Shown here piece by piece: positions 4,714 through 32,000 of a DNA stretch of 32,000 nt. Origin of the DNA: Mycobacterium tuberculosis H37Rv (lineage in GTDB: Bacteria; Actinomycetota; Actinomycetes; Mycobacteriales; Mycobacteriaceae). A program made the translations under genes and the position numbers. The notes under the pieces were generated by a model. That model saw only the letters and a list, made by a program, of their open reading frames with translations, made no database searches and was not told where the DNA came from. Position 1 is the first letter of the stretch; each line of letters begins with the position of its first letter. Location: the NCBI RefSeq assembly GCF_000195955.2, contig NC_000962.3:390001-422000 (forward strand), written 5' to 3'.

Positions 4714-5320
4714 ACCACACGGTCGCCGGATGGTCTGCACTGCGCTTGATGCCGACGTCGATGAAGCCGGCAGCGCCAAGCCACGCGGCGGTGTCGAGGG
4801 TGGGGGGCACGCGATAGATCGCGGGATCGAAACGGGCCGCCAGTGGTTGGTCATCGGATATCGATGTAAGGACGAGTCGACCCCCGGGCCGCAGGGCTCG
4901 AGCGATGTCGCAAAGGCTGGCGCGGGGATCGGGCCAGAAGTAAAAGTTGTGCACGCCGAGCACCTTGTCAAGGCTGTGGTCGGCAACCGGCAGGGTTACT
5001 CCATCGCCGTGATAAAGCGAGATCAGGCCGGCTGCAATGGCTTTCGCGTTGTGATGGGCCGCGATTGCGATCATGGTCGTCGACACCTCGACGCCGCTCA
5101 CTTGCGCGCCGGCGGCGGCGAGCAGCCCAAGGGTTCGGCCGGGGCCAAAGCCGATCTCGCAAACCCGCTCGCCCGGGCCGGGCGCGAGCAGCTCGACGGC
5201 GATGCGATTGACGTCGGCGGTCTCGGCTCGCCAGATCCGTCCCAGTAGGCGGCCGAACGCGCCTGTTGGCCGGGCAGCCTGACTGGATAGGTACCGTCGG
5301 GCCGGATGTGTGAGGCGCAT
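4694..5320 (-). CDS. Class I SAM-dependent methyltransferase (Rv0329c-like, 208 aa)
   Basis: Motif I VCEIGFGPGRT and post-I VSGVEVS, then LRPGGRLVLTS. The 3' end overlaps the TetR gene end by 20 nt (convergent). Confidence 0.85.
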   Translation of the reverse strand: MRLTHPARRYLSSQAARPTGAFGRLLGRIWRAETADVNRIAVELLAPGPGERVCEIGFGPGRTLGLLAAAGAQVSGVEVSTTMIAIAAHHNAKAIAAGLISLYHGDGVTLPVADHSLDKVLGVHNFYFWPDPRASLCDIARALRPGGRLVLTSISDDQPLAARFDPAIYRVPPTLDTAAWLGAAGFIDVGIKRSADHPATVWFTATAT

Positions 5321-5346
5321 GGGGACGACCTTTCGGTTGCAAGCGG

Positions 5347-6087
5347 TTAGTCCGAAGAAGCTGTGGTGGCCCGAACGACAAACTCGGCGAGGGTCGCAGC
5401 GATCGCATCGTCATCGATCACGCCAGGTTGCACGATCGACCAAGGCTCCGGTGACGGGTCGAAGTGAAGATGCACCGCCCACAACGCGCACAACTCGACG
5501 ATGGTCCGGGCCACCATCGGTGCCGGCCCGGGCAGGATCAGAAGGCCGGCGCGCTCGCGGTGCACTAGGTATGCCTGGACCGCATCGACTTGGGCGTTCC
5601 GGCCGGTGCCGAACCAAACCTCGGCGAGGTCGGGTAGCTCGGGGGCACAGCGGTCGACCAGTTTGAGCGCGATCCGGTGCCGGGCCAGGCGGCTGTAGAG
5701 GTCGGTGACGATACCGGCGAGTTCTGCTCGCGCGTCTCCAGTCGTCGCACCCGGCGGCAAAGTCGCTCGCAACGCGTGCGTGAGCCGCATGTCGGTGACC
5801 TCGCCAGCCAGTCGGGCCGACACCACAGCTGCGATCTCGCCCGCAACGGGAGCGGCCACCGGCAGTTCGGATGCCAGCGGAAGGGCTTCCTGAGCGTCGC
5901 CGTAGCGCACCGCCGCCGCGAACAGCGCAGCCTTGCCCTGGGCGTAGCCATACAGCGTGCCTTTGGCCAGGGCGAGTGCGTCGGCCACGTCCTGCACCTG
6001 GGTGCGCTGGTAACCGTGGGCGATGAACACCCGCGCCGACGCGGCGACAATCGCGGAAAACCGGTCCGCGGGAATGCTGCGGGCCAT
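5347..6087 (-). CDS. TetR-like transcriptional regulator (Rv0330c-like, 246 aa)
   Basis: N-terminus RFSAIVAASARVFIAHGYQRTQVQDVADALALAKGTLYGYAQGKAALF is a TetR-type HTH. It is divergent from the flavoprotein gene, with a perfect palindrome 16 nt upstream of its start. Confidence 0.8.
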   Translation of the reverse strand: MARSIPADRFSAIVAASARVFIAHGYQRTQVQDVADALALAKGTLYGYAQGKAALFAAAVRYGDAQEALPLASELPVAAPVAGEIAAVVSARLAGEVTDMRLTHALRATLPPGATTGDARAELAGIVTDLYSRLARHRIALKLVDRCAPELPDLAEVWFGTGRNAQVDAVQAYLVHRERAGLLILPGPAPMVARTIVELCALWAVHLHFDPSPEPWSIVQPGVIDDDAIAATLAEFVVRATTASSD

Positions 6088-6121: not shown

Positions 6122-6200
6122 CCCCAAGACCTTGCGCAAGACTGCGGCGGAATCTAATATTCCAAAGATATATGGAACTCGATGCGAAGGAATCAGGCTC

Positions 6201-7367
6201 ATGAGCAAGACGGTTCTCATCCTTGGCGCGGGTGTCGGCGGCCTGACCACCGCCGACACCCTCCGTCAACTGCTACCACCTGAGGATCGAATCATATTGG
6301 TGGACAGGAGCTTTGACGGGACGCTGGGCTTGTCGTTGCTATGGGTGTTGCGGGGCTGGCGGCGGCCTGACGACGTCCGCGTCCGCCCCACCGCGGCGTC
6401 GCTGCCCGGTGTGGAAATGGTTACTGCAACCGTCGCCCACATTGACATCGCGGCCCAGGTAGTGCACACCGACAACAGCGTCATCGGCTATGACGCGTTG
6501 GTGATCGCATTAGGTGCGGCGCTGAACACCGACGCCGTTCCCGGACTGTCGGACGCGCTCGACGCCGACGTCGCGGGCCAGTTCTACACCCTGGACGGCG
6601 CGGCTGAGCTGCGTGCGAAGGTCGAGGCGCTCGAGCATGGCCGGATCGCTGTGGCTATCGCCGGGGTGCCGTTCAAATGCCCAGCCGCACCGTTCGAAGC
6701 GGCGTTTCTGATCGCCGCCCAACTCGGTGACCGCTACGCCACCGGAACCGTACAGATCGACACGTTCACGCCTGACCCGCTGCCGATGCCCGTTGCAGGT
6801 CCCGAGGTCGGCGAGGCTTTGGTCTCGATGCTCAAGGATCACGGTGTCGGCTTCCATCCTCGCAAGGCCCTAGCTCGCGTCGATGAGGCCGCAAGGACGA
6901 TGCACTTCGGTGACGGCACGTCCGAACCGTTCGATCTGCTTGCCGTGGTCCCCCCGCACGTGCCCTCCGCCGCGGCGCGGTCAGCGGGTCTCAGCGAATC
7001 CGGGTGGATACCCGTGGACCCGCGCACCCTGTCCACTAGCGCCGACAACGTGTGGGCCATCGGCGATGCGACCGTGCTGACGCTGCCGAATGGCAAACCG
7101 CTGCCCAAGGCTGCCGTGTTCGCCGAAGCCCAGGCCGCAGTTGTCGCCCACGGCGTCGCCCGCCATCTCGGTTACGACGTAGCTGAGCGCCACTTCACCG
7201 GCACGGGCGCCTGCTACGTCGAGACCGGTGATCACCAGGCAGCCAAGGGCGACGGCGATTTCTTCGCTCCGTCGGCGCCCTCGGTGACGCTGTACCCGCC
7301 GTCGCGGGAGTTTCACGAGGAGAAGGTCGCACAAGAACTGGCCTGGCTGACCCGCTGGAAGACGTGA
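6201..7367 (+). CDS. FAD-dependent pyridine nucleotide-disulfide oxidoreductase, sulfide:quinone-reductase-like (Rv0331-like, 388 aa)
   Basis: ORF 6102..7367. Start taken at ATG 6201 (MSKTVLILGAGVGGLTTA, a GxGxxG Rossmann fold). A second dinucleotide region and a FKCPAAPFE motif are typical of SQR/FCSD-type flavoproteins. Confidence 0.85.
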   Translation: MSKTVLILGAGVGGLTTADTLRQLLPPEDRIILVDRSFDGTLGLSLLWVLRGWRRPDDVRVRPTAASLPGVEMVTATVAHIDIAAQVVHTDNSVIGYDALVIALGAALNTDAVPGLSDALDADVAGQFYTLDGAAELRAKVEALEHGRIAVAIAGVPFKCPAAPFEAAFLIAAQLGDRYATGTVQIDTFTPDPLPMPVAGPEVGEALVSMLKDHGVGFHPRKALARVDEAARTMHFGDGTSEPFDLLAVVPPHVPSAAARSAGLSESGWIPVDPRTLSTSADNVWAIGDATVLTLPNGKPLPKAAVFAEAQAAVVAHGVARHLGYDVAERHFTGTGACYVETGDHQAAKGDGDFFAPSAPSVTLYPPSREFHEEKVAQELAWLTRWKT

Positions 7368-7441
7368 CACGCCGGTGGGCGCGGCCCCCTACCACGGCTC
7401 CTACCGGCGCCCCTGAAACACCAGACTGTGGATAACCGCTG

Positions 7442-8227
7442 TTGCGCAAGCCTGCTAGTAGCCTCGCCAAGGTGGACTACTCGTCGGCATACCTGGAGCA
7501 GACCCACGCCTTCGGCGAACTGATCCGCAACGTCGATCAATCCACCCCGGTGCCGACCTGCCCGGGCTGGAGCCTGGGTCAACTATTCCGCCACGTCGGG
7601 CGCGGGGACCGCTGGGCGGCGCAGATTGTCCGCGATCGACTCGACCATTTCCTCGATCCACGCAGCGTCGAGGGCGGTAAGCCACCGCCGGACCCCGACG
7701 ACGCGATCTCCTGGCTGTACGGCGGGGCGCGGCTGCTGGTCGACGCTGTGGAACAAACGGGTGTGGAAACGCCGGTGTGGACCTTCCTCGGACCGCGCCC
7801 GGCGGGCTGGTGGGTTCGGCGGCGGCTACACGAGGTCGCAGTGCACCGCGCCGACGTGGCGATCACCGTCGGGGGCGAATTCACACTGGAACCGAACGTG
7901 GCAGCCGACGGGATCAGCGAATTCCTGGAGCGCATAGCGGTCCAGGCCGGCAGCGGCGGCACGCCATTACCGCTCGAAGACGACGACACCTTACATCTGC
8001 ACGCCACCGATCCGGGGCTTCTTGAAGCCGGCGAATGGACGGTTCGTCGCGACGAGCGCGGCGTCACCTGGTCGCATCGGCACGGAAAGGGTGCCGTGGC
8101 ACTGCGTGGCGGCGCCACCGAGCTGCTGCTGGCGATGGTGCGCCGACTCTCGGTTGCCGACACCGGCATCGAGCTGTTGGGGGATGCCGGGGTATGGCAA
8201 AAATGGCTGGATCGCACGCCGCTGTAG
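7442..8227 (+). CDS. DinB/mycothiol-dependent maleylpyruvate isomerase N-terminal-domain family protein (Rv0332-like, 261 aa)
   Basis: PTCPGWSLGQLFRHVGRGDRWAA ... RRRLHEVAVHRADV fits the MDMPI_N/DinB metal-binding helix-bundle pattern. The start (TTG 7442) is uncertain; GTG 7472 is an alternative. Confidence 0.7.
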   Translation: MRKPASSLAKVDYSSAYLEQTHAFGELIRNVDQSTPVPTCPGWSLGQLFRHVGRGDRWAAQIVRDRLDHFLDPRSVEGGKPPPDPDDAISWLYGGARLLVDAVEQTGVETPVWTFLGPRPAGWWVRRRLHEVAVHRADVAITVGGEFTLEPNVAADGISEFLERIAVQAGSGGTPLPLEDDDTLHLHATDPGLLEAGEWTVRRDERGVTWSHRHGKGAVALRGGATELLLAMVRRLSVADTGIELLGDAGVWQKWLDRTPL

Positions 8228-8253
8228 CCGCCGCACACGGTAACTTTCAGACC

Positions 8254-8628
8254 ATGACCACATCGGAGATCGCTACCGTGCTGGCCTGGCACGACGCCCT
8301 CAATGCCGCCGACATTGAGACCCTCGTGGCGTTGTCTACTGACGACATCGACATCGGTGACGCGCACGGGGCTGTACAGGGCCACGATGCGCTGCGCGGG
8401 TGGGCCAGCTCGCTCACCACAACCGCAGAACTTGGCCGCATGTACGTGCACCACGGAGTCGTGGTCGTCGAACAAAAGATCACCAGCGGCGAAGATCCGG
8501 GCATCGCCAGGACCGGCGCCGCGGCGTTCCGTGTGGTCCAAGACCACGTCGCATCGGTTTTCCGGCACGAAGACTTGGCGTCGGCGCTGGCGGCCACCGA
8601 ACTCACCGAGGACGATTTGGTCGATTGA
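8254..8628 (+). CDS. Small NTF2/SnoaL-like fold protein (Rv0333-like, 124 aa)
   Basis: ORF 8035..8628. Start taken at ATG 8254 (MTTSEIATVLAWHDALNAADIETLVALSTDDIDIGD), which has the typical SnoaL_2/NTF2-like opening. The upstream part of the ORF is Arg-rich and overlaps the Rv0332 end. Confidence 0.7.
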   Translation: MTTSEIATVLAWHDALNAADIETLVALSTDDIDIGDAHGAVQGHDALRGWASSLTTTAELGRMYVHHGVVVVEQKITSGEDPGIARTGAAAFRVVQDHVASVFRHEDLASALAATELTEDDLVD

Positions 8629-8657
8629 GGTCGGCGAACGGCAGTTAGGAGCCAGTT

Positions 8658-9524
8658 ATGCGCGGGATCATCTTGGCCGGCGGTTCGGGCACCCGGCTGT
8701 ACCCGATCACCATGGGGATCAGCAAGCAGCTGCTGCCGGTCTACGACAAACCGATGATCTACTACCCGCTCACCACGCTGATGATGGCTGGGATCCGAGA
8801 CATTCAGTTGATCACCACCCCGCATGACGCGCCCGGCTTTCATCGACTCCTGGGCGACGGCGCGCACTTGGGAGTGAACATCAGCTACGCCACCCAGGAT
8901 CAGCCTGACGGTCTGGCGCAGGCGTTCGTCATTGGCGCCAACCACATCGGCGCCGATTCGGTGGCATTGGTGTTGGGGGACAACATCTTCTACGGCCCAG
9001 GTCTGGGGACCAGCCTGAAGCGCTTCCAATCCATCAGTGGTGGAGCAATTTTCGCCTATTGGGTAGCCAACCCGTCGGCCTATGGTGTCGTTGAGTTCGG
9101 CGCCGAGGGCATGGCGCTGTCTCTGGAGGAGAAGCCGGTGACCCCGAAGTCGAATTACGCGGTGCCGGGCCTGTATTTCTATGACAACGATGTGATCGAA
9201 ATCGCCAGGGGTTTAAAGAAATCAGCGCGCGGGGAGTACGAGATCACCGAGGTCAACCAGGTCTACCTCAATCAGGGTAGGTTGGCGGTCGAGGTGCTGG
9301 CCCGCGGGACAGCGTGGCTGGACACCGGGACATTCGACTCGCTGCTGGACGCCGCCGATTTCGTCCGGACCCTGGAGCGTCGGCAGGGCCTGAAGGTCAG
9401 CATCCCCGAAGAAGTGGCGTGGCGCATGGGCTGGATCGACGACGAGCAGCTGGTGCAGCGAGCCCGTGCTCTGGTCAAGTCCGGATATGGTAACTACCTG
9501 CTGGAGTTGTTGGAGCGCAACTGA
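8658..9524 (+). CDS. rmlA: Glucose-1-phosphate thymidylyltransferase (288 aa)
   Basis: [18 protein letters not shown]...[17 protein letters not shown]...PDGLAQAF...LGDNIF is the canonical RmlA sequence. AGGAG Shine-Dalgarno at about 8647. Confidence 0.95.
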
Positions 9525-9534
9525 TTTCGGCGGG

Positions 9535-10050
9535 TTATTGTCGGTGATTATGGAACCCCCTGGTAGCCCGTCCTGGATGAGCAGCCCACCGGACCAGCCA
9601 TTGCCGAACAGCCCGCCGTTGGCGCCGTTGGCGATCAGCGGGCCCCAACAGCGCCTGGGTCGGCGCATCGGCGGTGGTCTCGGCGCTGGCACACGAGCCC
9701 GCACCCACGTTCAGGTTCTGTGCAAACTGGCCATGGAACGCCGCCGCCTGATTGTTGAGGGAGTGATGCCGCCGACCGTGTGCGGAAATCAGTGCCGCGA
9801 CGGCCGCCGACACCTCGTCTTCGGCCGCCGCCAGCACGCGGGTCTTGTGGCGCTTCGGCGGGAAGTTGCTGATCCGAGATGCTGGCGGCTGGTTTCCTTG
9901 TGGTGGCCTGGGCCGGGTGGTGGCGCACAGTGGGCCCGGTGGGGTCGCGGCCGGCCGGGCAAGAACGCTGCGCCCTGGCCGGGCCATGAGCGGAGCCGGC
10001 AAGCTCGACGGCGCCCGGCATGCGCGGTGCAAGAACCCCATGGACCGCAC
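9535..10050 (-). CDS. PE6: Atypical/decayed PE-family protein (PE6-like, 171 aa)
   Basis: Only the central part is PE-like: [21 protein letters not shown]...[23 protein letters not shown]...APTQALLGP. The N-terminal MSF...PE region is unrecognisable. The expected PGRS linker continues in another frame (see findings). Confidence 0.7.
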
Positions 10051-10191
10051 CGAGTGCCGTGCTCGCCCTCGGCGGCTACCGAGCCGGTGTCTCCCTAGTC
10101 ATCCACGTTATCCACAGCGCCTTGGGTTACCGGGCGCCGGTCGGGTAGCGATGGTAGTATCGAAAGTATGTTCGATCAGGTGCGGGGGCGC

Positions 10192-11703
10192 ATGCCTTCA
10201 CCGGAGGCGATCGCTCATTTTGATGAGCGGTTTGAATGCCATGCTCCGCGGACCACGAGGGTGTCGGCGGCGTTCATCGATCGGATCTGCTCGGCGACTC
10301 GGGCCGAAAACCGGGCCGCTGCGGCGCAGTTGGTGGCGTTGGGGGAGTTGTTCGCCTATCGGTGGTCGCGTTGCGGGGGCCGCGAGGAGTGGGTGATGGA
10401 CACCATGGCGGCGGTGGCCGCCGAGGTGGCGGCGGCGTTGCGGATCAGTCAGGGTCTGGCGGCCAGCCGGTTGCGGTATGCGCGGGCGATGCGTGAGCGG
10501 CTGCCTAAGACGGCTGAGGTGTTTAGCGCCGGCGACATCGGCTATCTGATGTTTGCCACGATTGTGTATCGCACCGACTTGATCGTTGACCCTGATGTTT
10601 TGGCGGCGGTGGATGCGCAGTTGGCCGCCAATGTGGCGCGTTGGCCCTCGATGACCAAGGCCCGCCTGGCTGGGCAGGTCGATAAGATCGTGGCGCGTGC
10701 CGATGCCGATGCGGTGCGGCGGCGCAAGGAGTATCAGGCCCAGCGCCAGTTCTGGGTCGGGGAAAGCCAAGACGGTGTGTGCCAGATCGGTGGCAGCCTG
10801 TTGGCCGTCGACGCACACGCCCTCGATGCGCGGTTGAGCGCGTTGGCGGGCACCGTGTGTGAGCACGATCCGCGCAGCCGTGAGCAGCGCCGCGCGGACG
10901 CGTTGGGGGCGTTGGCGGGCGGGGCCGATCGGCTGGGCTGTGGCTGTGGGCGCGCTGATTGTGCGGCCGGGAAGCGGCCTGCGGCCCCGCCGGTGGTGAT
11001 TCACCTGATCGCCGAGGCGGCCACGATCAATGGCACGGGCTCGGCGCCGGCATCGCAGATGAACGCCGACGGGCTGATCACCGCCGAACTGGTGGCCGAG
11101 CTGGCCAAGACGGCCACGCTGGTGCCGCTGGTTCATCCCGGCGATGCGCCGCCCGAGCCGGGGTATGCGCCGTCGAAAGCGCTCGCCGATTTCGTTCGCT
11201 GCCGGGATCTGACGTGTCGCTGGCCCGGCTGTGATGAGCCCGCCACCAATTGCGACCTGGATCATACGATCCCGTATGCCGCTGGTGGGCCCACCCATGC
11301 GTCGAACCTGAAATGTTACTGCCGTACCCATCACCTGGTGAAAACGTTTTGGGGATGGCGTGATCAACAGCTACCCGACGGCACCCTGATTTTGACCTCC
11401 CCGTCCGGGCATACCTATGTCAGCACCCCGGGCAGTGCGCTGCTGTTCCCCAGCTTGTGCCACTTCAGCGGCGGCATCCCGGCACCGGAAGCCGACCCAC
11501 CCTACGACCATTGCGACCAGCGCACAGCGATGATGCCCAAACGCCGGCGCACCCGCGCCCAAGACCGGGCCTATCGCATCGCCACCGAACGTCGACAAAA
11601 CCACGCCGCCCGCCAGCGCGCCCAGGTGCTCACCCAGACCGCCGCGGCCACCGACACCCACGGCCCACCACCGGATCCCAACGACGACCCACCGCCGTTT
11701 TGA
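10192..11703 (+). CDS. REP13E12-family protein: DUF222 N-terminal region plus HNH endonuclease domain (Rv0336-like, 503 aa)
   Basis: C-terminal HNH motif CRWPGCDEPATNCDLDHTIPYAAGGPTHASNLKCYCRTHHLVKT. The ORF opens at ATG 10168 and ATG 10192 is the second Met, so start choice is uncertain. I recognise the protein as the M. tuberculosis 13E12 repeat family. Confidence 0.85.
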   Translation: MPSPEAIAHFDERFECHAPRTTRVSAAFIDRICSATRAENRAAAAQLVALGELFAYRWSRCGGREEWVMDTMAAVAAEVAAALRISQGLAASRLRYARAMRERLPKTAEVFSAGDIGYLMFATIVYRTDLIVDPDVLAAVDAQLAANVARWPSMTKARLAGQVDKIVARADADAVRRRKEYQAQRQFWVGESQDGVCQIGGSLLAVDAHALDARLSALAGTVCEHDPRSREQRRADALGALAGGADRLGCGCGRADCAAGKRPAAPPVVIHLIAEAATINGTGSAPASQMNADGLITAELVAELAKTATLVPLVHPGDAPPEPGYAPSKALADFVRCRDLTCRWPGCDEPATNCDLDHTIPYAAGGPTHASNLKCYCRTHHLVKTFWGWRDQQLPDGTLILTSPSGHTYVSTPGSALLFPSLCHFSGGIPAPEADPPYDHCDQRTAMMPKRRRTRAQDRAYRIATERRQNHAARQRAQVLTQTAAATDTHGPPPDPNDDPPPF

Positions 11704-25501: not shown

Positions 25502-26965
25502 TCAGATTGGATCCGCCGAATGGACGACCGCGACACTCTTGGTGTGGTCGATGGCGTGGTGCGCGACGGCCGTCACACGATTGCGGACCAAATACCAGCC
25601 ACCGATGAGGGCCGGTACACCGATCACCGTTGCGGCGATCATCCAGGGACCGTGTTGTTCGTCGAAGTACATCAGGATCAGCACGCCGGCCAGGAAAGCC
25701 AGCGTCAGATAGCCGCTGAACGGTGAAAGCGGCATCCGGAATTTCGGCCGCTGCAGCTGCCCGGCGTTCGCCATCCGGTGGAGCCGCAGCTGGCAAGCCA
25801 CGATCGTCGCCCAGGCCGCGATGACTCCCGTCGCGGCGATGTGGAGCACGATCTCGAAGGCTTGGCTCGGTTTGATGGCGTTGAGAATGATGCCCAACAG
25901 GCCGATACCGGCGGTGAGCAGGATCCCGCCGTACGGCACGCCGGTCTTCGACATTGGTGCGGTGAACCTCGGGCCGCTGCCGTTGATCGCCATTGATCGC
26001 AGGATCCGTCCGGTGGAATACAGTCCGGCGTTGAGGCTCGACAGCGCGGCGGTGAGCACGACGAGGTTCATCACGCTGCCCGCCGCGTCGATACCGATCT
26101 TGGAAAAGAAGGTCACGAACGGGCTGACATGTTCTTTGTAGGCGGTATAGGGCAGCAGCAGGGCCAGCAGGACAGTCGACCCGACGTAGAAGCACGCGAT
26201 GCGCAACACCACAGAGTTGATCGCGCGCGGCATGATCTTTGCCGGTTCGGCTGTTTCCCCGGCCGCGATGCCCACCAGTTCGATTGCGGCGTAGGCGAAT
26301 ACCACCCCCGAGGTGACCAGCACTATGGGCAGCAGACCGGTTGGCACGATGCCTCCATGGCTGCTCCACAGGGAGACCCCGGTCTCCTGGCCGTCGATCT
26401 TGTAGCGCCCAGCGAGAAAGACCGTACCGACGATCAGAAACGTAACCAGCGCGATCACCTTGATCAATGAGGCCCAGAACTCCAGCTCGCCGAAGAGCCT
26501 GACCGAGATCAGGTTCATCGACAACACGACCAGCAGCGCGATCAACGCCAGCGTCCACTGGGGGATGGGTTGAAACGCCCGCCAGTAATGGCAATAGTGC
26601 GCGATCGCGGTGGTATCGACGATCCCCGTCATCGCCCAGTTCAGGAAGTACATCCACCCGGCGACGAAGGCCACCTTTTCCCCGTAGAACTCGCGGGCGT
26701 AGGACACGAATGACCCCGAGGACGGACGGTGCAGCACCAGTTCGCCGAGCGCGCGCAGGATCAGGAACACGAAGATGCCGCAGATCCCATAGACCAGGAA
26801 CAAACCGGGCCCCGCCGATGCAAGGCGGCCGCCGGCGCCGAGAAAAAGGCCGGTACCGATGGCACCACCGAGAGCGATCATTTGCAGTTGCCGGCTATGG
26901 AGGCCTTTGTGATAGCCCGTGTCTTCGCGCGTGAGCCGCTCGTCGGTGATGTCTAGCGGTGGCAT
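25502..26965 (-). CDS. ansP2: APC-family amino-acid permease, L-asparagine permease (487 aa)
   Basis: ORF 25502..27016(-). Start taken at ATG 26963-26965 ([11 protein letters not shown]...[27 protein letters not shown]). There are 12 predicted TM-type hydrophobic stretches typical of AnsP/AroP permeases. Confidence 0.92.
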
Positions 26966-27155
26966 TGAGCTCCCTGGGATGGTGGCTTCTTGGGACGCGC
27001 GTGAGATGGGGCACACCCAACGGACTGGCTGTCAGGCTATCCCACGCGGCTGCGAGGTGCCGCTTGGCAACCAATCGGAAACAATCGATCGGTCAACGGT
27101 GCTTTGTTGTCGTGCCGACCGTCGCGGGTGGCCGCGTTGACAGTCGATATTGCGG

Positions 27156-27454
27156 TCACAGGCTGACGCGCCTGGCCAGCCAGACGCTCGCGAAGTGCGG
27201 GTCCGTCCTGGCCGCGAGGGTGTCGTAGCCGCGGTCGTAGTGTGAGACTCCGACACCTGATCCGCCAGCGCAGAGATGTGAGATCAACGGACGGAAGGCG
27301 ACGGTGCCCGGCGCGCGCGAGTTGACGCTGCGCGTCGAGCGCGGGGCTCTATTTCGGCGTCGATGGGCAGCATCGGCAGCGTCATCAGCTCGCGCAGCAA
27401 TTCGTCGTGATCCGCGGCGCTGCGCGCTGGGTACCCGGCCTCGATGGGTATCAT
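27156..27454 (-). pseudogene. Unannotated relic of a VapC-type PIN-domain toxin gene (C-terminal about 2/3, frameshifted, 5'-truncated)
   Basis: Minus strand, frame a (27454->27284): MIPIEAGYPARSAADHDELLRELMTLPMLPIDAEIEPRARRAASTRARRAPSPSVR*. Frame b (ends TGA at 27156-27158): ...SRAPGTVAFRPLISHLCAGGSGVGVSHYDRGYDTLAARTDPHFASVWLARRVSL*. Joined at the CGCGCGCG run (about 27305-27320), these follow the VapC pattern ...LP.L.(I/V)D..I..RA....RAARRAG.TV......LIAA.A...G..(I/V).H.D.D(F/Y)D.(I/L)AR.T. Third-codon positions on this strand are strongly G/C. Confidence 0.5.
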
Positions 27455-27477
27455 TTTTGGTTATCGTTCTGGTTATC

Positions 27478-28290
27478 ATGAATGTTGTGACGGCCCATCC
27501 CAAGTACCCGAATGACCCTCTTGCGCTGGTATTGATTGAACTGCGCCATCCGCGGACCGAGCCGCCGGTGCCATCTGCTATCTCCATCCTGAAGGAGGAG
27601 CTGGCGCGATGGACTCCCATACTCGAACAGGAGGAGGTGCGGCAGGTCAACCTAGAAACGGGCGAACATACCGCACACTCACAGAAGAAGCTCGTTGCCC
27701 GTGATCGCCGCACCGCGATCACGTTTCGACCCGACGCCATGACCCTCGAAGTCACCGACTACCCGGGCTGGGAGGAGTTTCGGTCCATCGTTCACGCGAT
27801 GGTCACAGCCCGCCAGGACGTGGCCCCAGTCGATGGCTGCATCCGGATCGGTCTGCGCTACATCAACGAGATTCGGGCATCGCTGGCGGAGCCATCCGGC
27901 TGGGCGTACTGGGTGGCGGAAAGTCTCCTCGGGCCTGGGACACAGCTTGCCGATCTCAAACTCACCACCACCGCGCAACGGCACGTCATTCAGTGCGAAG
28001 GCCCGGAGCCAGGCGACTCCTTGACACTGAGGTACGCCGGTGCGCGCGGCGCGGTCATCCAGTCAACCCCGTTTCTCCAGCGGTTGAAAGAACCTCCGGC
28101 AGAAGGAGATTTCTTCCTCATCGATATCGACAGCGCGTGGAGCGACCCCTGCAAGGGCATCCCAGCGCTCGACGCCCACCTGGTGGACGAGGTCGCCGAA
28201 AGGCTCCACACACCCATCGGCCCACTGTTCGAATCGCTGATAACTTCCGAACTCCGTACAAAGGTGCTGCAACAACCTGGGCAGGAGTGA
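27478..28290 (+). CDS. TIGR04255-like uncharacterised protein (Rv0347; I prefer the 270-aa form; the maximal ORF and, as I recall, the database annotation start at GTG 27304 for 328 aa)
   Basis: MNVVTAHPKYPNDPLALVLIELRHP..., a central IRIGLRYINEIR and a C-terminal FFLIDIDSAW...LHTPIGPLFESLITSELR match my memory of the TIGR04255 family, whose members begin a few residues before the Y-P-N-x-P-L motif. The 58 upstream codons are Arg-rich and antisense to the VapC relic. Confidence 0.8.
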   Translation: MNVVTAHPKYPNDPLALVLIELRHPRTEPPVPSAISILKEELARWTPILEQEEVRQVNLETGEHTAHSQKKLVARDRRTAITFRPDAMTLEVTDYPGWEEFRSIVHAMVTARQDVAPVDGCIRIGLRYINEIRASLAEPSGWAYWVAESLLGPGTQLADLKLTTTAQRHVIQCEGPEPGDSLTLRYAGARGAVIQSTPFLQRLKEPPAEGDFFLIDIDSAWSDPCKGIPALDAHLVDEVAERLHTPIGPLFESLITSELRTKVLQQPGQE

Positions 28291-28292
28291 CC

Positions 28293-28946
28293 ATGACCAT
28301 TTCGTTCTCTAGCTCGAATCTCCGAGACGACGCCACCTCTGGCAACGGCGATTACCGCCTCGACAAGCTGCCCGAAACCACCCCATCGACCTCGGTGTTC
28401 GACCGCGCCGATGTCACCTACCGCCAATTCACGGAACTCCACGGGCAAGCCCGCGACACACGGCGGGAGGCGCACGTGGTTGAGCTGGAGTCCAAGACCG
28501 GCGAGCGGGCTCGGTGCGCACCCATGCATGCGCTTGAGCAGCTCGCGGACTACGGCTTTGCCTGGCGGGACATCGCACGCGTTGTCGGAGTGAGCGTGCC
28601 CGCAATCACCAAATGGCGCAAGGGCGCTGGAGTTACCGGCGAGAACCGGCTAAAAATCGCCCGTCTACTCGCCCTCATCGACATGCTCTCGGACCGATTC
28701 ATCGGCGAGCCCGCCTCCTGGCTGGAAATGCCGATCCAAGCCGGAGTGGGAATCACCCGAATGGACCTCCTGGAGCGAGGTCGATATGACCTCGTATTGG
28801 CGCTGGCTAGTACCCACACTGGGGACGGTACGGTCGAATACGTACTGAACGAGACTGATAAGGACTGGCGAGAGACCGTTGTAGACAACGCTTTCGAATC
28901 CTACACAGCCGAGGACGGCGTGATCTCGATAAGACCCAAGCGGTAA
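28293..28946 (+). CDS. mosR: HTH (Xre-like) regulator with DUF2384-like antitoxin-type C-terminal region (Rv0348, 217 aa; reported as MosR)
   Basis: ATG lies 2 nt after the Rv0347 stop, with AGGAG inside the Rv0347 3' end. HTH GFAWRDIARVVGVSVPAITKWRKGAGVTGENRLKIARL, then PASWLEMPIQAGVGITRMDLLERGRYDLVLALA, which resembles the W-L..P...L.G..P.DLL motif of Xre/MbcA/ParS-type antitoxins. Confidence 0.85.
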   Translation: MTISFSSSNLRDDATSGNGDYRLDKLPETTPSTSVFDRADVTYRQFTELHGQARDTRREAHVVELESKTGERARCAPMHALEQLADYGFAWRDIARVVGVSVPAITKWRKGAGVTGENRLKIARLLALIDMLSDRFIGEPASWLEMPIQAGVGITRMDLLERGRYDLVLALASTHTGDGTVEYVLNETDKDWRETVVDNAFESYTAEDGVISIRPKR

Positions 28947-28948
28947 CC

Positions 28949-29608
28949 GTGCCAGAGCTGGAGACGCCCGACGACCCAGAGTCGATATACCTTGCCCGCC
29001 TCGAGGATGTCGGAGAACACAGACCGACGTTCACGGGCGACATCTACCGACTCGGCGATGGTCGCATGGTGATGATCCTCCAGCACCCATGCGCGCTGCG
29101 GCACGGCGTTGACCTCCATCCGCGACTGCTGGTCGCTCCCGTAAGACCCGACTCGCTTCGTTCCAACTGGGCTAGAGCCCCGTTCGGCACGATGCCGCTT
29201 CCGAAGCTCATCGACGGTCAGGATCACTCGGCGGACTTCATCAATCTTGAACTCATCGATTCACCAACGCTTCCGACCTGTGAGCGGATCGCGGTGCTCA
29301 GCCAGTCAGGCGTCAACTTGGTCATGCAACGGTGGGTGTACCACAGCACCCGGCTCGCCGTGCCCACGCACACCTACTCCGACAGCACCGTTGGCCCGTT
29401 CGATGAGGCAGACCTGATCGAGGAGTGGGTGACGGATCGCGTCGACGATGGGGCCGACCCGCAGGCGGCCGAACACGAATGCGCCTCCTGGCTCGATGAA
29501 AGAATCAGCGGCCGCACTCGGCGAGCGCTGCTCAGCGACCGTCAGCACGCCAGTTCAATACGGCGAGAAGCGCGTTCTCATCGAAAGTCGGTCAAGCTGG
29601 CGGACTGA
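28949..29608 (+). CDS. Hypothetical protein, no recognisable domain (Rv0349-like, 219 aa)
   Basis: GTG lies 2 nt after the Rv0348 stop, suggesting translational coupling. The ORF is uninterrupted and has non-random composition. I could identify no motif with confidence. Confidence 0.7.
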   Translation: MPELETPDDPESIYLARLEDVGEHRPTFTGDIYRLGDGRMVMILQHPCALRHGVDLHPRLLVAPVRPDSLRSNWARAPFGTMPLPKLIDGQDHSADFINLELIDSPTLPTCERIAVLSQSGVNLVMQRWVYHSTRLAVPTHTYSDSTVGPFDEADLIEEWVTDRVDDGADPQAAEHECASWLDERISGRTRRALLSDRQHASSIRREARSHRKSVKLAD

Positions 29609-29717
29609 GCACTGCTCTCCGGGCTTGACCGGGGCCTCTCCCAGCTACGCCCCGAGCGTGTGCCCTGCCGACACGCGGGAACAAGACCCGCACGACCAGC
29701 GTTAGCATGCTCAGTAA

Positions 29718-29738
29718 GTTGAGTGCATCAGGCTCAGC
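29718..29738 (+). promoter_or_regulatory. Weaker HAIR-like site (HspR-associated inverted repeat) upstream of dnaK
   Basis: gTTGAGT-gcatcag-gCTCAgc compared with the consensus CTTGAGT-N7-ACTCAAG: 6/7 match on the left arm and 4/7 on the right. Confidence 0.4.
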
Positions 29739-29771
29739 TCTGAATTGACAGCACACCGCCGTCGAGGCAAG

Positions 29772-29792
29772 CTTGAGCGGGGTGCACTCATC
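29772..29792 (+). promoter_or_regulatory. HAIR element (HspR operator) in the dnaK promoter
   Basis: CTTGAGc-ggggtgc-ACTCAtc compared with the consensus CTTGAGT-N7-ACTCAAG. It lies 43 nt upstream of the dnaK ATG and abuts a -10-like CATAGT (29792-29797). Confidence 0.7.
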
Positions 29793-29834
29793 ATAGTGCA
29801 GGAAAGAAGCTCTACATATTCAGGAGGATTCACC

Positions 29835-31712
29835 ATGGCTCGTGCGGTCGGGATCGACCTCGGGACCACCAACTCCGTCGTCTCGGTTCTGGAAGGTGGC
29901 GACCCGGTCGTCGTCGCCAACTCCGAGGGCTCCAGGACCACCCCGTCAATTGTCGCGTTCGCCCGCAACGGTGAGGTGCTGGTCGGCCAGCCCGCCAAGA
30001 ACCAGGCAGTGACCAACGTCGATCGCACCGTGCGCTCGGTCAAGCGACACATGGGCAGCGACTGGTCCATAGAGATTGACGGCAAGAAATACACCGCGCC
30101 GGAGATCAGCGCCCGCATTCTGATGAAGCTGAAGCGCGACGCCGAGGCCTACCTCGGTGAGGACATTACCGACGCGGTTATCACGACGCCCGCCTACTTC
30201 AATGACGCCCAGCGTCAGGCCACCAAGGACGCCGGCCAGATCGCCGGCCTCAACGTGCTGCGGATCGTCAACGAGCCGACCGCGGCCGCGCTGGCCTACG
30301 GCCTCGACAAGGGCGAGAAGGAGCAGCGAATCCTGGTCTTCGACTTGGGTGGTGGCACTTTCGACGTTTCCCTGCTGGAGATCGGCGAGGGTGTGGTTGA
30401 GGTCCGTGCCACTTCGGGTGACAACCACCTCGGCGGCGACGACTGGGACCAGCGGGTCGTCGATTGGCTGGTGGACAAGTTCAAGGGCACCAGCGGCATC
30501 GATCTGACCAAGGACAAGATGGCGATGCAGCGGCTGCGGGAAGCCGCCGAGAAGGCAAAGATCGAGCTGAGTTCGAGTCAGTCCACCTCGATCAACCTGC
30601 CCTACATCACCGTCGACGCCGACAAGAACCCGTTGTTCTTAGACGAGCAGCTGACCCGCGCGGAGTTCCAACGGATCACTCAGGACCTGCTGGACCGCAC
30701 TCGCAAGCCGTTCCAGTCGGTGATCGCTGACACCGGCATTTCGGTGTCGGAGATCGATCACGTTGTGCTCGTGGGTGGTTCGACCCGGATGCCCGCGGTG
30801 ACCGATCTGGTCAAGGAACTCACCGGCGGCAAGGAACCCAACAAGGGCGTCAACCCCGATGAGGTTGTCGCGGTGGGAGCCGCTCTGCAGGCCGGCGTCC
30901 TCAAGGGCGAGGTGAAAGACGTTCTGCTGCTTGATGTTACCCCGCTGAGCCTGGGTATCGAGACCAAGGGCGGGGTGATGACCAGGCTCATCGAGCGCAA
31001 CACCACGATCCCCACCAAGCGGTCGGAGACTTTCACCACCGCCGACGACAACCAACCGTCGGTGCAGATCCAGGTCTATCAGGGGGAGCGTGAGATCGCC
31101 GCGCACAACAAGTTGCTCGGGTCCTTCGAGCTGACCGGCATCCCGCCGGCGCCGCGGGGGATTCCGCAGATCGAGGTCACTTTCGACATCGACGCCAACG
31201 GCATTGTGCACGTCACCGCCAAGGACAAGGGCACCGGCAAGGAGAACACGATCCGAATCCAGGAAGGCTCGGGCCTGTCCAAGGAAGACATTGACCGCAT
31301 GATCAAGGACGCCGAAGCGCACGCCGAGGAGGATCGCAAGCGTCGCGAGGAGGCCGATGTTCGTAATCAAGCCGAGACATTGGTCTACCAGACGGAGAAG
31401 TTCGTCAAAGAACAGCGTGAGGCCGAGGGTGGTTCGAAGGTACCTGAAGACACGCTGAACAAGGTTGATGCCGCGGTGGCGGAAGCGAAGGCGGCACTTG
31501 GCGGATCGGATATTTCGGCCATCAAGTCGGCGATGGAGAAGCTGGGCCAGGAGTCGCAGGCTCTGGGGCAAGCGATCTACGAAGCAGCTCAGGCTGCGTC
31601 ACAGGCCACTGGCGCTGCCCACCCCGGCGGCGAGCCGGGCGGTGCCCACCCCGGCTCGGCTGATGACGTTGTGGACGCGGAGGTGGTCGACGACGGCCGG
31701 GAGGCCAAGTGA
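29835..31712 (+). CDS. dnaK: Hsp70 chaperone DnaK (625 aa)
   Basis: AGGAGGA SD at 29822-29828. [22 protein letters not shown]..., [10 protein letters not shown] and the EEVD-less actinobacterial C-terminus. The ORF opens at 29745 but the conserved N-terminus begins at ATG 29835. Confidence 0.98.
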
Positions 31713-32000
31713 CGGACGGAAATCAAAAGCCGGATGGCAATTCGGGCGAACAGGTAACCGTCACTGACAAGCGGCGGATCGATCCCGAGACGGGTGAAGT
31801 GCGGCACGTCCCTCCCGGCGACATGCCGGGAGGGACGGCTGCGGCCGATGCGGCGCACACCGAAGACAAGGTCGCCGAGCTGACCGCCGATCTGCAACGC
31901 GTGCAGGCCGACTTCGCCAACTACCGTAAGCGGGCGTTGCGCGATCAGCAGGCGGCCGCTGACCGAGCCAAGGCCAGCGTTGTCAGCCAATTGCTGGGTG
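31709..32000 (+). CDS. grpE: Nucleotide-exchange factor GrpE, 5' portion (continues beyond window)
   Basis: GTG 31709 overlaps the dnaK stop (GTGA). My hand translation is [38 protein letters not shown]...[43 protein letters not shown], open to the window end. The DFxNYRKR motif is GrpE-typical. Confidence 0.93.

Follow-up and report, generated by a model that had tools for sequence, protein, structure and literature searches.

Three genes of Mycobacterium tuberculosis H37Rv, Rv0347, Rv0348 (mosR) and Rv0349, together with the promoter in front of them, probably form a tripartite toxin-antitoxin-like cassette of the addiction or defence type. The cassette spans positions 27447-29608 of the window, by which we mean the entire 32,000-nt stretch of DNA analysed (H37Rv 390001-422000; the annotated Rv0347 start at 417304 equals window position 27304, and published coordinates agree throughout). 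The operon is transcribed as a leaderless mRNA from the GTG of the first gene, and three 12-nt repeats overlap the promoter. We propose that MosR is an MbcA-type antitoxin. It binds these repeats and mildly represses its own operon, as published binding and overexpression data show, and it would also bind and neutralise Rv0349. Rv0349 would be the toxic effector, whose target one would naturally guess to be nucleic acid or a nucleic-acid enzyme. Rv0347 would be an obligatory third partner on the protective side, which may either stabilise or assist the antitoxin, like the SecB-like chaperone of toxin-antitoxin-chaperone (TAC) systems, or counteract the toxin enzymatically. The elements of the cassette are as follows.

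27447-27482, + strand: operator/promoter with three tandem 12-nt direct repeats, GGTATCATTTTT, GGTTATCGTTCT and GGTTATCATGAA
27487-28290, + strand: Rv0347, 267 aa after correction, leaderless GTG start, TIGR04255 family, predicted TBP-like two-repeat fold, putative protective/accessory component
28293-28946, + strand: Rv0348 (MosR), 217 aa, predicted antitoxin/autorepressor
28949-29608, + strand: Rv0349, 219 aa, predicted toxin with a MazF/CcdB-type barrel and a helical domain

A co-inherited and mobile three-gene unit

The initial annotation described three open reading frames (ORFs) spaced 2 nt apart, and both junctions match it exactly: TGA (28288-28290), cc and ATG (28293-28295) separate Rv0347 from Rv0348, and TAA (28944-28946), cc and GTG (28949-28951) separate Rv0348 from Rv0349. 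We scanned one genome per species with the TIGR04255 alignment as query and took the best 80 of the 346 relatives; these 80 all come from Actinomycetota, two of them on Pseudarthrobacter plasmids. Nearly all of the 84 loci that we compared stem from this TIGR04255-seeded scan, and prophage-like contigs and plasmids were also included. Hidden Markov models of the three families found TIGR04255, helix-turn-helix (HTH) and Rv0349-like genes following one another in this order on one strand at 61 of the 84, and 21 further loci held only a solitary TIGR04255 paralogue that belongs to a separate clade in slow-growing mycobacteria. The converse search, using the Rv0349 alignment on metagenome contigs, found both partners in 65/65 loci having at least 1.5 kb of upstream DNA. 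Linkage outside the M. tuberculosis complex (MTBC), whose absence the initial annotation had named as grounds for giving up its candidate module, is therefore very strong in both directions. In Williamsia, Streptacidiphilus and Arthrobacter, for instance, the homologue of Rv0349 follows a TIGR04255 gene and a MosR-like gene, and the surroundings of these loci are unrelated.

The junctions overlap or are at most ~11 nt apart in nearly all loci, a survey in which start-codon choice favours small gaps, and pairwise distances are correlated among the three proteins (r = 0.85-0.87, Mantel p <= 0.001). The genes are thus adjacent, co-oriented, tightly coupled and co-inherited, as is expected of type II toxin-antitoxin systems.

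Plasmids carry the trio in Pseudarthrobacter and, in two mobilizable cases, in Rhodococcus, and the full trio is present on six IMG/VR viral contigs. An Arthrobacter locus has a plasmid-like context with ParA, resolvases, GmrSD and MmeI; the M. gilvum locus lies in an island with SNF2, methyltransferase, restriction endonuclease and transposase genes; one locus adjoins a Phd/ParE pair, and a Rhodococcus locus has prophage tail genes nearby. None of the GenBank phages has the trio, and the trio proteins had no match in PHROGs. Published phylogenomic studies put Rv0347 and mosR among candidates for horizontal gene transfer and found that, among close relatives, mosR is common only to M. shinjukuense. 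A horizontally acquired, self-contained cassette, common in Actinomycetota and carried on plasmids, on prophage-like elements and in defence islands, is the best explanation.

MosR contains an MbcA-type core

MosR consists of a variable N-terminal region (residues 1-75), an Xre-type HTH with an MbcA-like C-terminal domain (~80-174, nt 28530-28814) and a conserved extension (175-217). The Pfam HTH models HTH_23/HTH_3 match in 52/52 or 38/52 members of the family. Searches of the Protein Data Bank (PDB) with the single trio proteins gave nothing significant by sequence, and the only sequence match for MosR was MbcA (E 0.41 with the single sequence, E 0.17 with the first profile, A3). With a diverse, N-terminally trimmed family profile (A6), the top match in all of the PDB was again MbcA (6fkg_C, E 4.3e-5, covering residues 12-107 of 115), to which hhalign assigned a probability of 89.4%. 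The PF09722 segment of MbcA aligns with Rv0348 residues ~134-172. Because the profile match spans both the HTH and the Xre/MbcA/ParS toxin-binding domain, homology of the MosR core (~80-174) to the Xre/MbcA/ParS-type antitoxin MbcA is supported at the level of sequence profiles, and the core is predicted to be of the MbcA antitoxin type.

A JGI metagenome contig of 1710 bp (P0146) encodes a 241-aa protein whose first ~120 residues are 89% identical to MosR 78-198 and whose C-terminal half is a RES-domain (PF08808) fragment. This may be an assembly chimera or a natural fusion of a MosR-type antitoxin with a RES toxin.

A direct-repeat operator on a leaderless promoter

The third of the three repeats contains a -10-like TATCAT at 27474-27479. 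Across loci the pattern is roughly GGTTGYCGTTTY, then GGTTKCYG and four variable bases, then RGTAnCAT; the first repeat starts 38-40 nt before the start codon, and the -10-like TAnnnT of the third lies 6-8 nt before it. At this fixed distance to the start codon, the periodic repeat score was perfect in 56/62 genome loci, compared with 0.16% of shuffles, and in an independent set it was perfect in 48/54 metagenome loci, with a null of 0. Nothing else in the window matches the element, and 100 shuffles gave 0 matches; a repeat search confirmed its 12-nt spacing. We also looked for a palindromic operator and found none; the element is made of direct repeats. A generic sigma-70 scan found no promoter here, a miss that is expected for mycobacterial promoters with only a -10 element. 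At two metagenome loci (L172 and L150) there are apparently four 12-nt repeats upstream of the TIGR04255 gene, which suggests operator expansion by whole units.

Going by the spacing of the repeats, the mRNA should be leaderless and begin at GTG 27487. Shell 2015 lists a transcription start site (TSS) at H37Rv 417487 (G), inside Rv0347, with the flag 'shortens annotated ORF'. On the strength of this TSS and of the conserved promoter spacing we place the start of Rv0347 at GTG 27487. The annotated ORF (27304-28290, 328 aa) is over-extended: its TIGR04255 match begins at residue 67, its homologues are 263-268 aa long, and the corrected length of 267 aa equals that of the M. shinjukuense homologue. 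The 61 annotated N-terminal codons (27304-27486) are almost certainly untranslated, since they overlap an opposite-strand vapC relic and lie upstream of both the TIGR04255 match and the leaderless TSS. The label 'probable conserved membrane protein' derives from a hydrophobic segment inside this spurious extension.

Chromatin immunoprecipitation sequencing (ChIP-seq) by Minch et al. puts a MosR peak centre at 417462 (window 27462), at the midpoint of the repeats, 25 nt before the TSS at 417487. In the same study Rv0347 expression went down by log2 0.86 (p 0.04) on MosR induction. The MosR motif that they report, ACtaGAACGanaaCtAaa, is close to the reverse complement of TTTGGTTATCGTTCTGGT and differs from it at two weakly weighted positions. 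Because the peak sits on the repeats and Rv0347 falls when MosR is induced, autoregulation at the conserved operator is experimentally supported. MosR thus combines an HTH, conserved repeats, a ChIP-seq peak upon them and reduced Rv0347 expression, the traits of the DNA-binding, autoregulating antitoxin of a type II system.

Direct global regulation by MosR, unlike autoregulation, is without experimental support. The summary table of Minch et al. has only two MosR peaks, peak-gene assignments for MosR number three overall, and one peak is on its own promoter; published experiments found an interaction of MosR with DevR in vitro and no direct binding to the devR promoter; and a review describes as indirect the effect on 163 differentially expressed genes that the literature reports for the mosR mutant.

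Two further TSSs lie inside the operon.

28254, + strand: internal TSS 39 nt upstream of Rv0348 (Shell 2015 supplement; DeJesus 2017 table of 5' untranslated regions)
28842, + strand: TSS of Rv0349 inside the 3' end of Rv0348 (the same DeJesus table; primary TSS 418842 in the Minch supplement)

The ChIP-seq data of Minch et al. also contain Rv0081 peaks at window 28246, 28876 and 29261 (418246, 418876 and 419261), that is, in the two internal TSS regions and inside Rv0349, and Rv0678 peaks at 417496, 418260 and 418864, so the internal promoters may be targets of host regulators.

Rv0349 has the predicted fold of MazF and CcdB toxins

Rv0349 is predicted to have an N-terminal beta-barrel (residues ~10-117, nt 28976-29299) with the motif VLQHPCALR and a C-terminal helical domain (119-214, nt 29303-29590). 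Its AlphaFold2 (AF2) model (pLDDT 93.2, pTM 0.89) is beta-rich up to residue 117 and helical beyond. Foldseek searches of the PDB with this model returned MazF, MoxT/YdcE and CcdB toxins in all of the top 50 places (E from 4.8e-4, probability 1.00, target TM 0.56-0.74). As the initial annotation had it, the protein has no RES domain or other recognisable domain: scans of Pfam, NCBIfam, PADLOC and PHROGs gave no match. Among 81 family members, PF02452 and PF01845 found nothing at E <= 10, nor was there a Pfam match of any kind, and the family profile had no PDB match at E <= 10. A weak hhalign alignment with MazF is co-linear, pairing TGDIY with RGDVY and VMILQHP with VLVIQND.

The six invariant residues of the family (G121, Q127, R128, R135, E153 and W160) all lie in the helical domain. 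An exhaustive profile search counted 766 clusters at E <= 1e-3, of which 598 also pass E <= 1e-10, with lengths mostly of 200-260 aa among those listed. The catalytic Arg and Thr of MazF are not conserved in this family, and the chemistry of Rv0349 therefore probably differs; judged from its model, the protein is probably a MazF/CcdB-fold effector with non-MazF chemistry. In the literature searched, Rv0349 is mentioned in omics papers only.

Rv0347 is a TIGR04255 protein with an invariant charged cluster

The leading gene had been assigned to the TIGR04255 family, and the NCBIfam model bears this out with E 7.4e-48 and 163.5 bits against a cutoff of 30, aligned to model positions 1-250 of 252. 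TIGR04255 also matches the leading gene at the loci in Williamsia, Streptacidiphilus and Arthrobacter. The AF2 model of Rv0347 (pLDDT 91.8, pTM 0.88) shows two S1-H1-S2-S3-S4-S5-H2 repeats that form a TBP-like pseudo-dimer. Foldseek found weak PDB matches only (AdoMetDC, TBP and the phosphoglucomutase C-terminal domain; target TM <= 0.39), and the TIGR04255 profile had no PDB match at E <= 10. Beyond its own family, the model has only one clear structural relative, the BFVD entry A0A515MGR4, an unnamed 202-aa viral protein with an Rv0347-like fold (Foldseek E 1.4e-9, target TM 0.62, 18% identity).

The family has an invariant charged cluster of E21, R23, H24, R75, E91, R123, R127, E131, R133, D216 and D218, where R123, R127, E131, D216 and D218 follow a 270-aa numbering from which 3 is to be subtracted for the 267-aa protein. 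The cluster is equally kept in the solitary paralogues, which argues for an intrinsic ligand-binding or catalytic site. Four C-terminal positions, D119, H244, E252 and R260, are specific to trio-linked copies. We found no mention of the TIGR04255 family in the literature searched.

The solitary clade (L055, L056, L061-L065, L067, L072-L075 and L077-L084) comes from slow-growing mycobacteria; its members are ~33% identical to Rv0347 and lack a MosR-like or Rv0349-like partner. At the two loci examined (L061 and L072), the gene is flanked by a PE-PPE gene on one side and a leucine carboxyl methyltransferase gene on the other.

Insertion tolerance and gene decay

Published saturating transposon sequencing (Tn-seq) by DeJesus 2017 covers all three genes. 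Rv0347 has 18 TA sites, 17 of them in the growth-defect state, with a saturation of 0.17, a mean count of 36 and the call growth defect (GD). Rv0348 was called non-essential (NE), with 8 of 19 TA sites in the growth-defect state, a saturation of 0.79 and a mean count of 35. In Rv0349, also NE, all 8/8 TA sites were disrupted and 0 were in the growth-defect state (saturation 1.0, mean count 285). Two earlier screens likewise scored Rv0347 as required. Given that it was recently acquired and is absent from most mycobacteria, this is explained most economically if a toxic gene linked to it makes it conditionally required.

Decay in nature falls mainly on the third gene, which is broken in 15/61 species-level loci (12 frameshifted and 3, L009, L024 and L040, truncated or missing), compared with 1/61 for the first gene and 2/61 for the second (Fisher p = 2e-4 and 1e-3). 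In M. shinjukuense, the closest trio carrier outside the MTBC, both genomes (L085 and L086) have the same frameshift in the Rv0349 homologue, and in one of them the TIGR04255 gene is frameshifted as well. Where the first gene is broken (L052 and L086), the third is broken too. Together, the Tn-seq asymmetry and the third-gene decay fit, indirectly, a toxin role for Rv0349.

Weighing the toxin-antitoxin interpretation

Several observations weigh against the toxin-antitoxin interpretation. The initial annotation had read Rv0348 as an Xre HTH followed by a DUF2384-type antitoxin domain; its homology to MbcA over both parts stands, but the Pfam model does not recognise it, as PF09722 (formerly DUF2384) matches, at E <= 10, neither Rv0348 nor any of the 52 members of its family that were scanned. 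A vague likeness of the Rv0349 N terminus to PemK/MazF cores had likewise been noted, and it holds for the fold but not for the sequence: hhalign gives the Rv0349 family a probability of 2.3% against B. subtilis MazF, with no sequence-level link to PemK/MazF or CcdB, and the alignment sets MazF Arg25 and Thr48 against non-conserved columns of the family, whose conserved motif is QHPCALR instead. Lacking a profile link and the MazF catalytic residues, the toxin assignment rests on the fold and on indirect genetics. PADLOC-DB v2 has no match at E <= 1 for any of the three proteins.

The genetics are also unusual for a simple pair: insertions are tolerated worst in the first gene rather than in the HTH gene, a ranking for which polarity, translational coupling and the promoters inside the operon (28254 and 28842) could offer several explanations. 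A mosR disruption mutant of M. tuberculosis is viable, which, if MosR were the sole antidote, would require either polarity on Rv0349 or protection by Rv0347. Some of the pseudogene calls come from metagenome-assembled genomes in which assembly errors are possible, and many affected contigs look short-read by name; assembly errors would, however, be expected to strike all three genes equally. The observations establish the anatomy and conservation of the cassette, the homology and fold assignments, the operator, the TSS, the binding of MosR and the asymmetries in Tn-seq and decay; that Rv0349 is toxic, that MosR neutralises it and how Rv0347 acts is what we infer.

One variant, which we hold as tentative, is that the cassette is primarily an anti-phage abortive-infection system in which Rv0347 or MosR senses infection and frees Rv0349, with plasmid or prophage stabilisation secondary. 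The trio recurs beside restriction-modification, GmrSD and MmeI genes, on plasmids and in prophage-like contigs, and many toxin-antitoxin-like modules in plasmid, prophage and defence-gene contexts are defence systems. Against this stand the missing PADLOC and PHROG models and GenBank phages already described, and in M. tuberculosis the trio lies between ansP2 and dnaK without neighbouring defence genes. This variant is compatible with the toxin-antitoxin interpretation and not exclusive of it.

A more specific version of the toxin-antitoxin interpretation is possible, though doubtful. The trio may represent a new tripartite class in which a TBP-like TIGR04255 protein with a pocket for nucleotide or phosphate acts as an enzymatic antidote or sensor that gates an MbcA-type antitoxin and a new toxin combining the MazF fold with a helical domain and non-MazF chemistry; the regulator and chronic-infection phenotypes of mosR would then be due to toxin deregulation.

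Somewhat less probable, and on balance unlikely, is a redistribution of roles within the same cassette, with Rv0347 as the real antidote of Rv0349 (a type IV/VII-like enzyme or binder) and MosR as a repressor only, like omega or PaaR2. As to which protein is the direct antidote, the Tn-seq ranking favours Rv0347 over MosR, given the low saturation of Rv0347 and the disruption of Rv0348 at 79% of its sites, and transcription from the TSSs at 28254 and 28842 would still supply Rv0348 and Rv0349 after an interruption of Rv0347. The Arg/Glu/Asp-x-Asp cluster shared with the solitary paralogues suggests an intrinsic catalytic or ligand site, Rv0349 is never without TIGR04255 in the 65/65 metagenome loci, and breakage of the first gene goes with breakage of the third. 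However, MosR has an MbcA-type toxin-binding domain besides its HTH, which would be superfluous in a pure regulator; the Tn-seq ranking can also result from polarity, translational coupling and the internal TSSs; and the TIGR04255 fold matches in the PDB, with target TM <= 0.39, give no enzymatic identity.

Lastly, the published view of MosR as a global transcription factor for hypoxia, starvation and virulence, with Rv0347 and Rv0349 as co-transcribed accessories of unrelated, non-toxic function, draws on the 163 differentially expressed genes and the attenuation of the mosR mutant in chronic infection, on network analyses that make Rv0348 a hub and on the DevR interaction, but is improbable, as it is at odds with the few ChIP-seq peaks, the unbound devR promoter and the regulation that a review calls indirect, leaves unexplained the strict three-gene linkage over phyla-level distances, the plasmid and prophage carriage, the MbcA homology, the MazF/CcdB fold, the third-gene decay and the Tn-seq asymmetry, and credits to regulation the large indirect transcriptome shifts that toxin derepression would give.

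Comparison with known systems

Set against characterised systems, the trio combines familiar parts in an unfamiliar way. With MbcT-MbcA (Rv1989c-Rv1990c), which M. tuberculosis also carries, and the wider Xre-RES/ParST family, it shares an antitoxin gene directly upstream of, and translationally coupled to, a putative toxin gene, and its MosR core (~80-174) aligns with nearly all of MbcA, HTH and toxin-binding domain alike (E 4.3e-5). It differs in that Rv0349 has a predicted MazF/CcdB fold plus a helical domain and is not a RES-domain NAD+ phosphorylase/ADP-ribosyltransferase; MosR, unlike MbcA, has a 75-aa N-terminal and a 45-aa C-terminal extension and falls below the PF09722 threshold; and a third obligatory gene, TIGR04255, leads the operon.

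The likeness to MazEF, Kid-Kis and CcdAB lies in the effector. The first 110 residues of the Rv0349 model can be overlaid on MazF/CcdB structures (target TM 0.56-0.74), and the 'GD(I/V)' and 'xP' strand motifs line up with those of MazF in the weak hhalign alignment. Unlike these toxins, Rv0349 has neither sequence-profile membership nor the conserved MazF catalytic Arg/Thr, it is twice the size, its invariant residues all lie in the C-terminal helical domain, and its partner is of the Xre/MbcA type and not MazE, Kis or CcdA.

The TAC system HigB1-HigA1-SecB-like chaperone (Rv1955-Rv1957) also consists of three co-transcribed M. tuberculosis genes. It has a third protein, neither toxin nor DNA-binding, on the protective side, and an antitoxin extended beyond the minimal fold, and these traits are the basis for likening the trio to it. 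Its toxin gene is, like Rv0349, freely disruptable in Tn-seq (HigB 'growth advantage'). The third protein of the trio, however, has a TBP-like TIGR04255 fold and not that of SecB, and the trio order is accessory-antitoxin-toxin where TAC has toxin-antitoxin-chaperone. Any chaperone-addiction segment in the trio would be hypothetical.

Omega-epsilon-zeta and paaR2-paaA2-parE2 are likewise tripartite, with a dedicated HTH or ribbon-helix-helix autorepressor. They differ from the trio in that MosR also has a toxin-binding-type domain and that the extra protein is large (267 aa) and enzyme-like and not a small antitoxin.

What is new is the combination: an obligatory TIGR04255 partner, a helical domain with all the invariant residues, and a leaderless promoter whose operator consists of direct repeats, all made of parts that resemble known ones. 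These features are not described in the searchable literature and are absent from Pfam, PADLOC and PHROGs. Among papers on Rv0348 and 'antitoxin', judged by title and abstract, none treats the locus as a toxin-antitoxin system.

Locus composition and left boundary

The gene order in the region is ansP2 (Rv0346c), a non-coding stretch, Rv0347, Rv0348, Rv0349 and dnaK. The AT shift described for the trio is real but modest. The hand count of 54% G+C for 28801-28900 is exact, and trio G+C is 61.9% compared with 65.2% for the whole window (1.7th percentile among equal-size windows); the clearest composition signal is G+C at third codon positions (GC3), at 72-74% in the trio versus 82% in ansP2 and dnaK. 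The flanks are not 'very GC-rich', as total G+C is 62.6% in ansP2 and 63.5% in dnaK. No Rfam family falls within window 26500-30000. Upstream of dnaK, the sequence CTTGAGCGGGGTGCACTCATC at 29772-29792 (+) has 3 mismatches to the HspR-associated inverted repeat (CTTGAGT-N7-ACTCAAG); with 0.63 such matches expected by chance it is not significant alone, and its position is as expected.

Two features mark the left edge.

27156-27451, - strand: vapC (PIN) pseudogene relic, 5'-truncated (codons 1-46 gone) and with two frameshifts, outside the cassette and marking its left boundary in M. tuberculosis
27444-27446, no strand: junction of a 567-bp deletion relative to M. shinjukuense, located by blastn

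The vapC relic reported beside the trio is genuine: in a tblastn search, residues 47-146 of the intact 146-aa M. shinjukuense PIN protein matched 27159-27451 (-) in three frames with 72-82% identity (E 1e-25). Its breakpoint had been taken for a scar of insertion or replacement, and this was not borne out. M. shinjukuense has the order ansP2, intact 146-aa PIN gene, ~460-bp spacer, trio and dnaK. By blastn, window 27154-27444 corresponds to 5290-5587 of its locus L085 and window 27446-31996 to 6155-10681; positions 27444 and 27446 thus correspond to 5587 and 6155, and M. tuberculosis lacks exactly 567 bp. Since M. shinjukuense has both an intact vapC and the trio, vapC was not truncated by insertion of the trio, and we reject that cause; a later deletion in the M. 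tuberculosis lineage took the 5' end of vapC and the intergenic spacer and ended exactly at the left edge of the repeat element. A plasmid origin for the relic region was looked for and not found. The two species show opposite patterns, with vapC intact and the trio broken in M. shinjukuense and vapC lost and the trio intact in M. tuberculosis.

A terminator-like hairpin and T-run (GGTACCCGGCCTCGATGGGTATC ATTTTTGG) at 27430-27452 (+) extends across the deletion junction, directly before the repeats. It might shield the promoter of the cassette from an upstream TSS at 27252, or it may be chance, as the scan found 3 terminator-like sites where 1.6 were expected.

Implications

M. tuberculosis is a model organism for the abundance of toxin-antitoxin systems. 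If our interpretation is correct, Rv0349 would add a previously unrecognised toxin family, and an Xre/MbcA antitoxin scaffold would be paired with a non-RES, MazF-fold partner. Two uncharacterised families, TIGR04255 and the ~770-cluster Rv0349 family, would be placed in a functional context that can be tested. Rv0347 is re-annotated as a leaderless 267-aa protein that is not a membrane protein, and the sharply defined operator and leaderless promoter are open to direct experiments. The 'required' status of Rv0347 in Tn-seq would be conditional on the linked toxin, which matters for drug-target lists. MosR, named as a regulator of virulence and hypoxia, would primarily be the autorepressor and antidote of a mobile cassette, and its mutant phenotypes and 'regulon' would have to be reread in that light.

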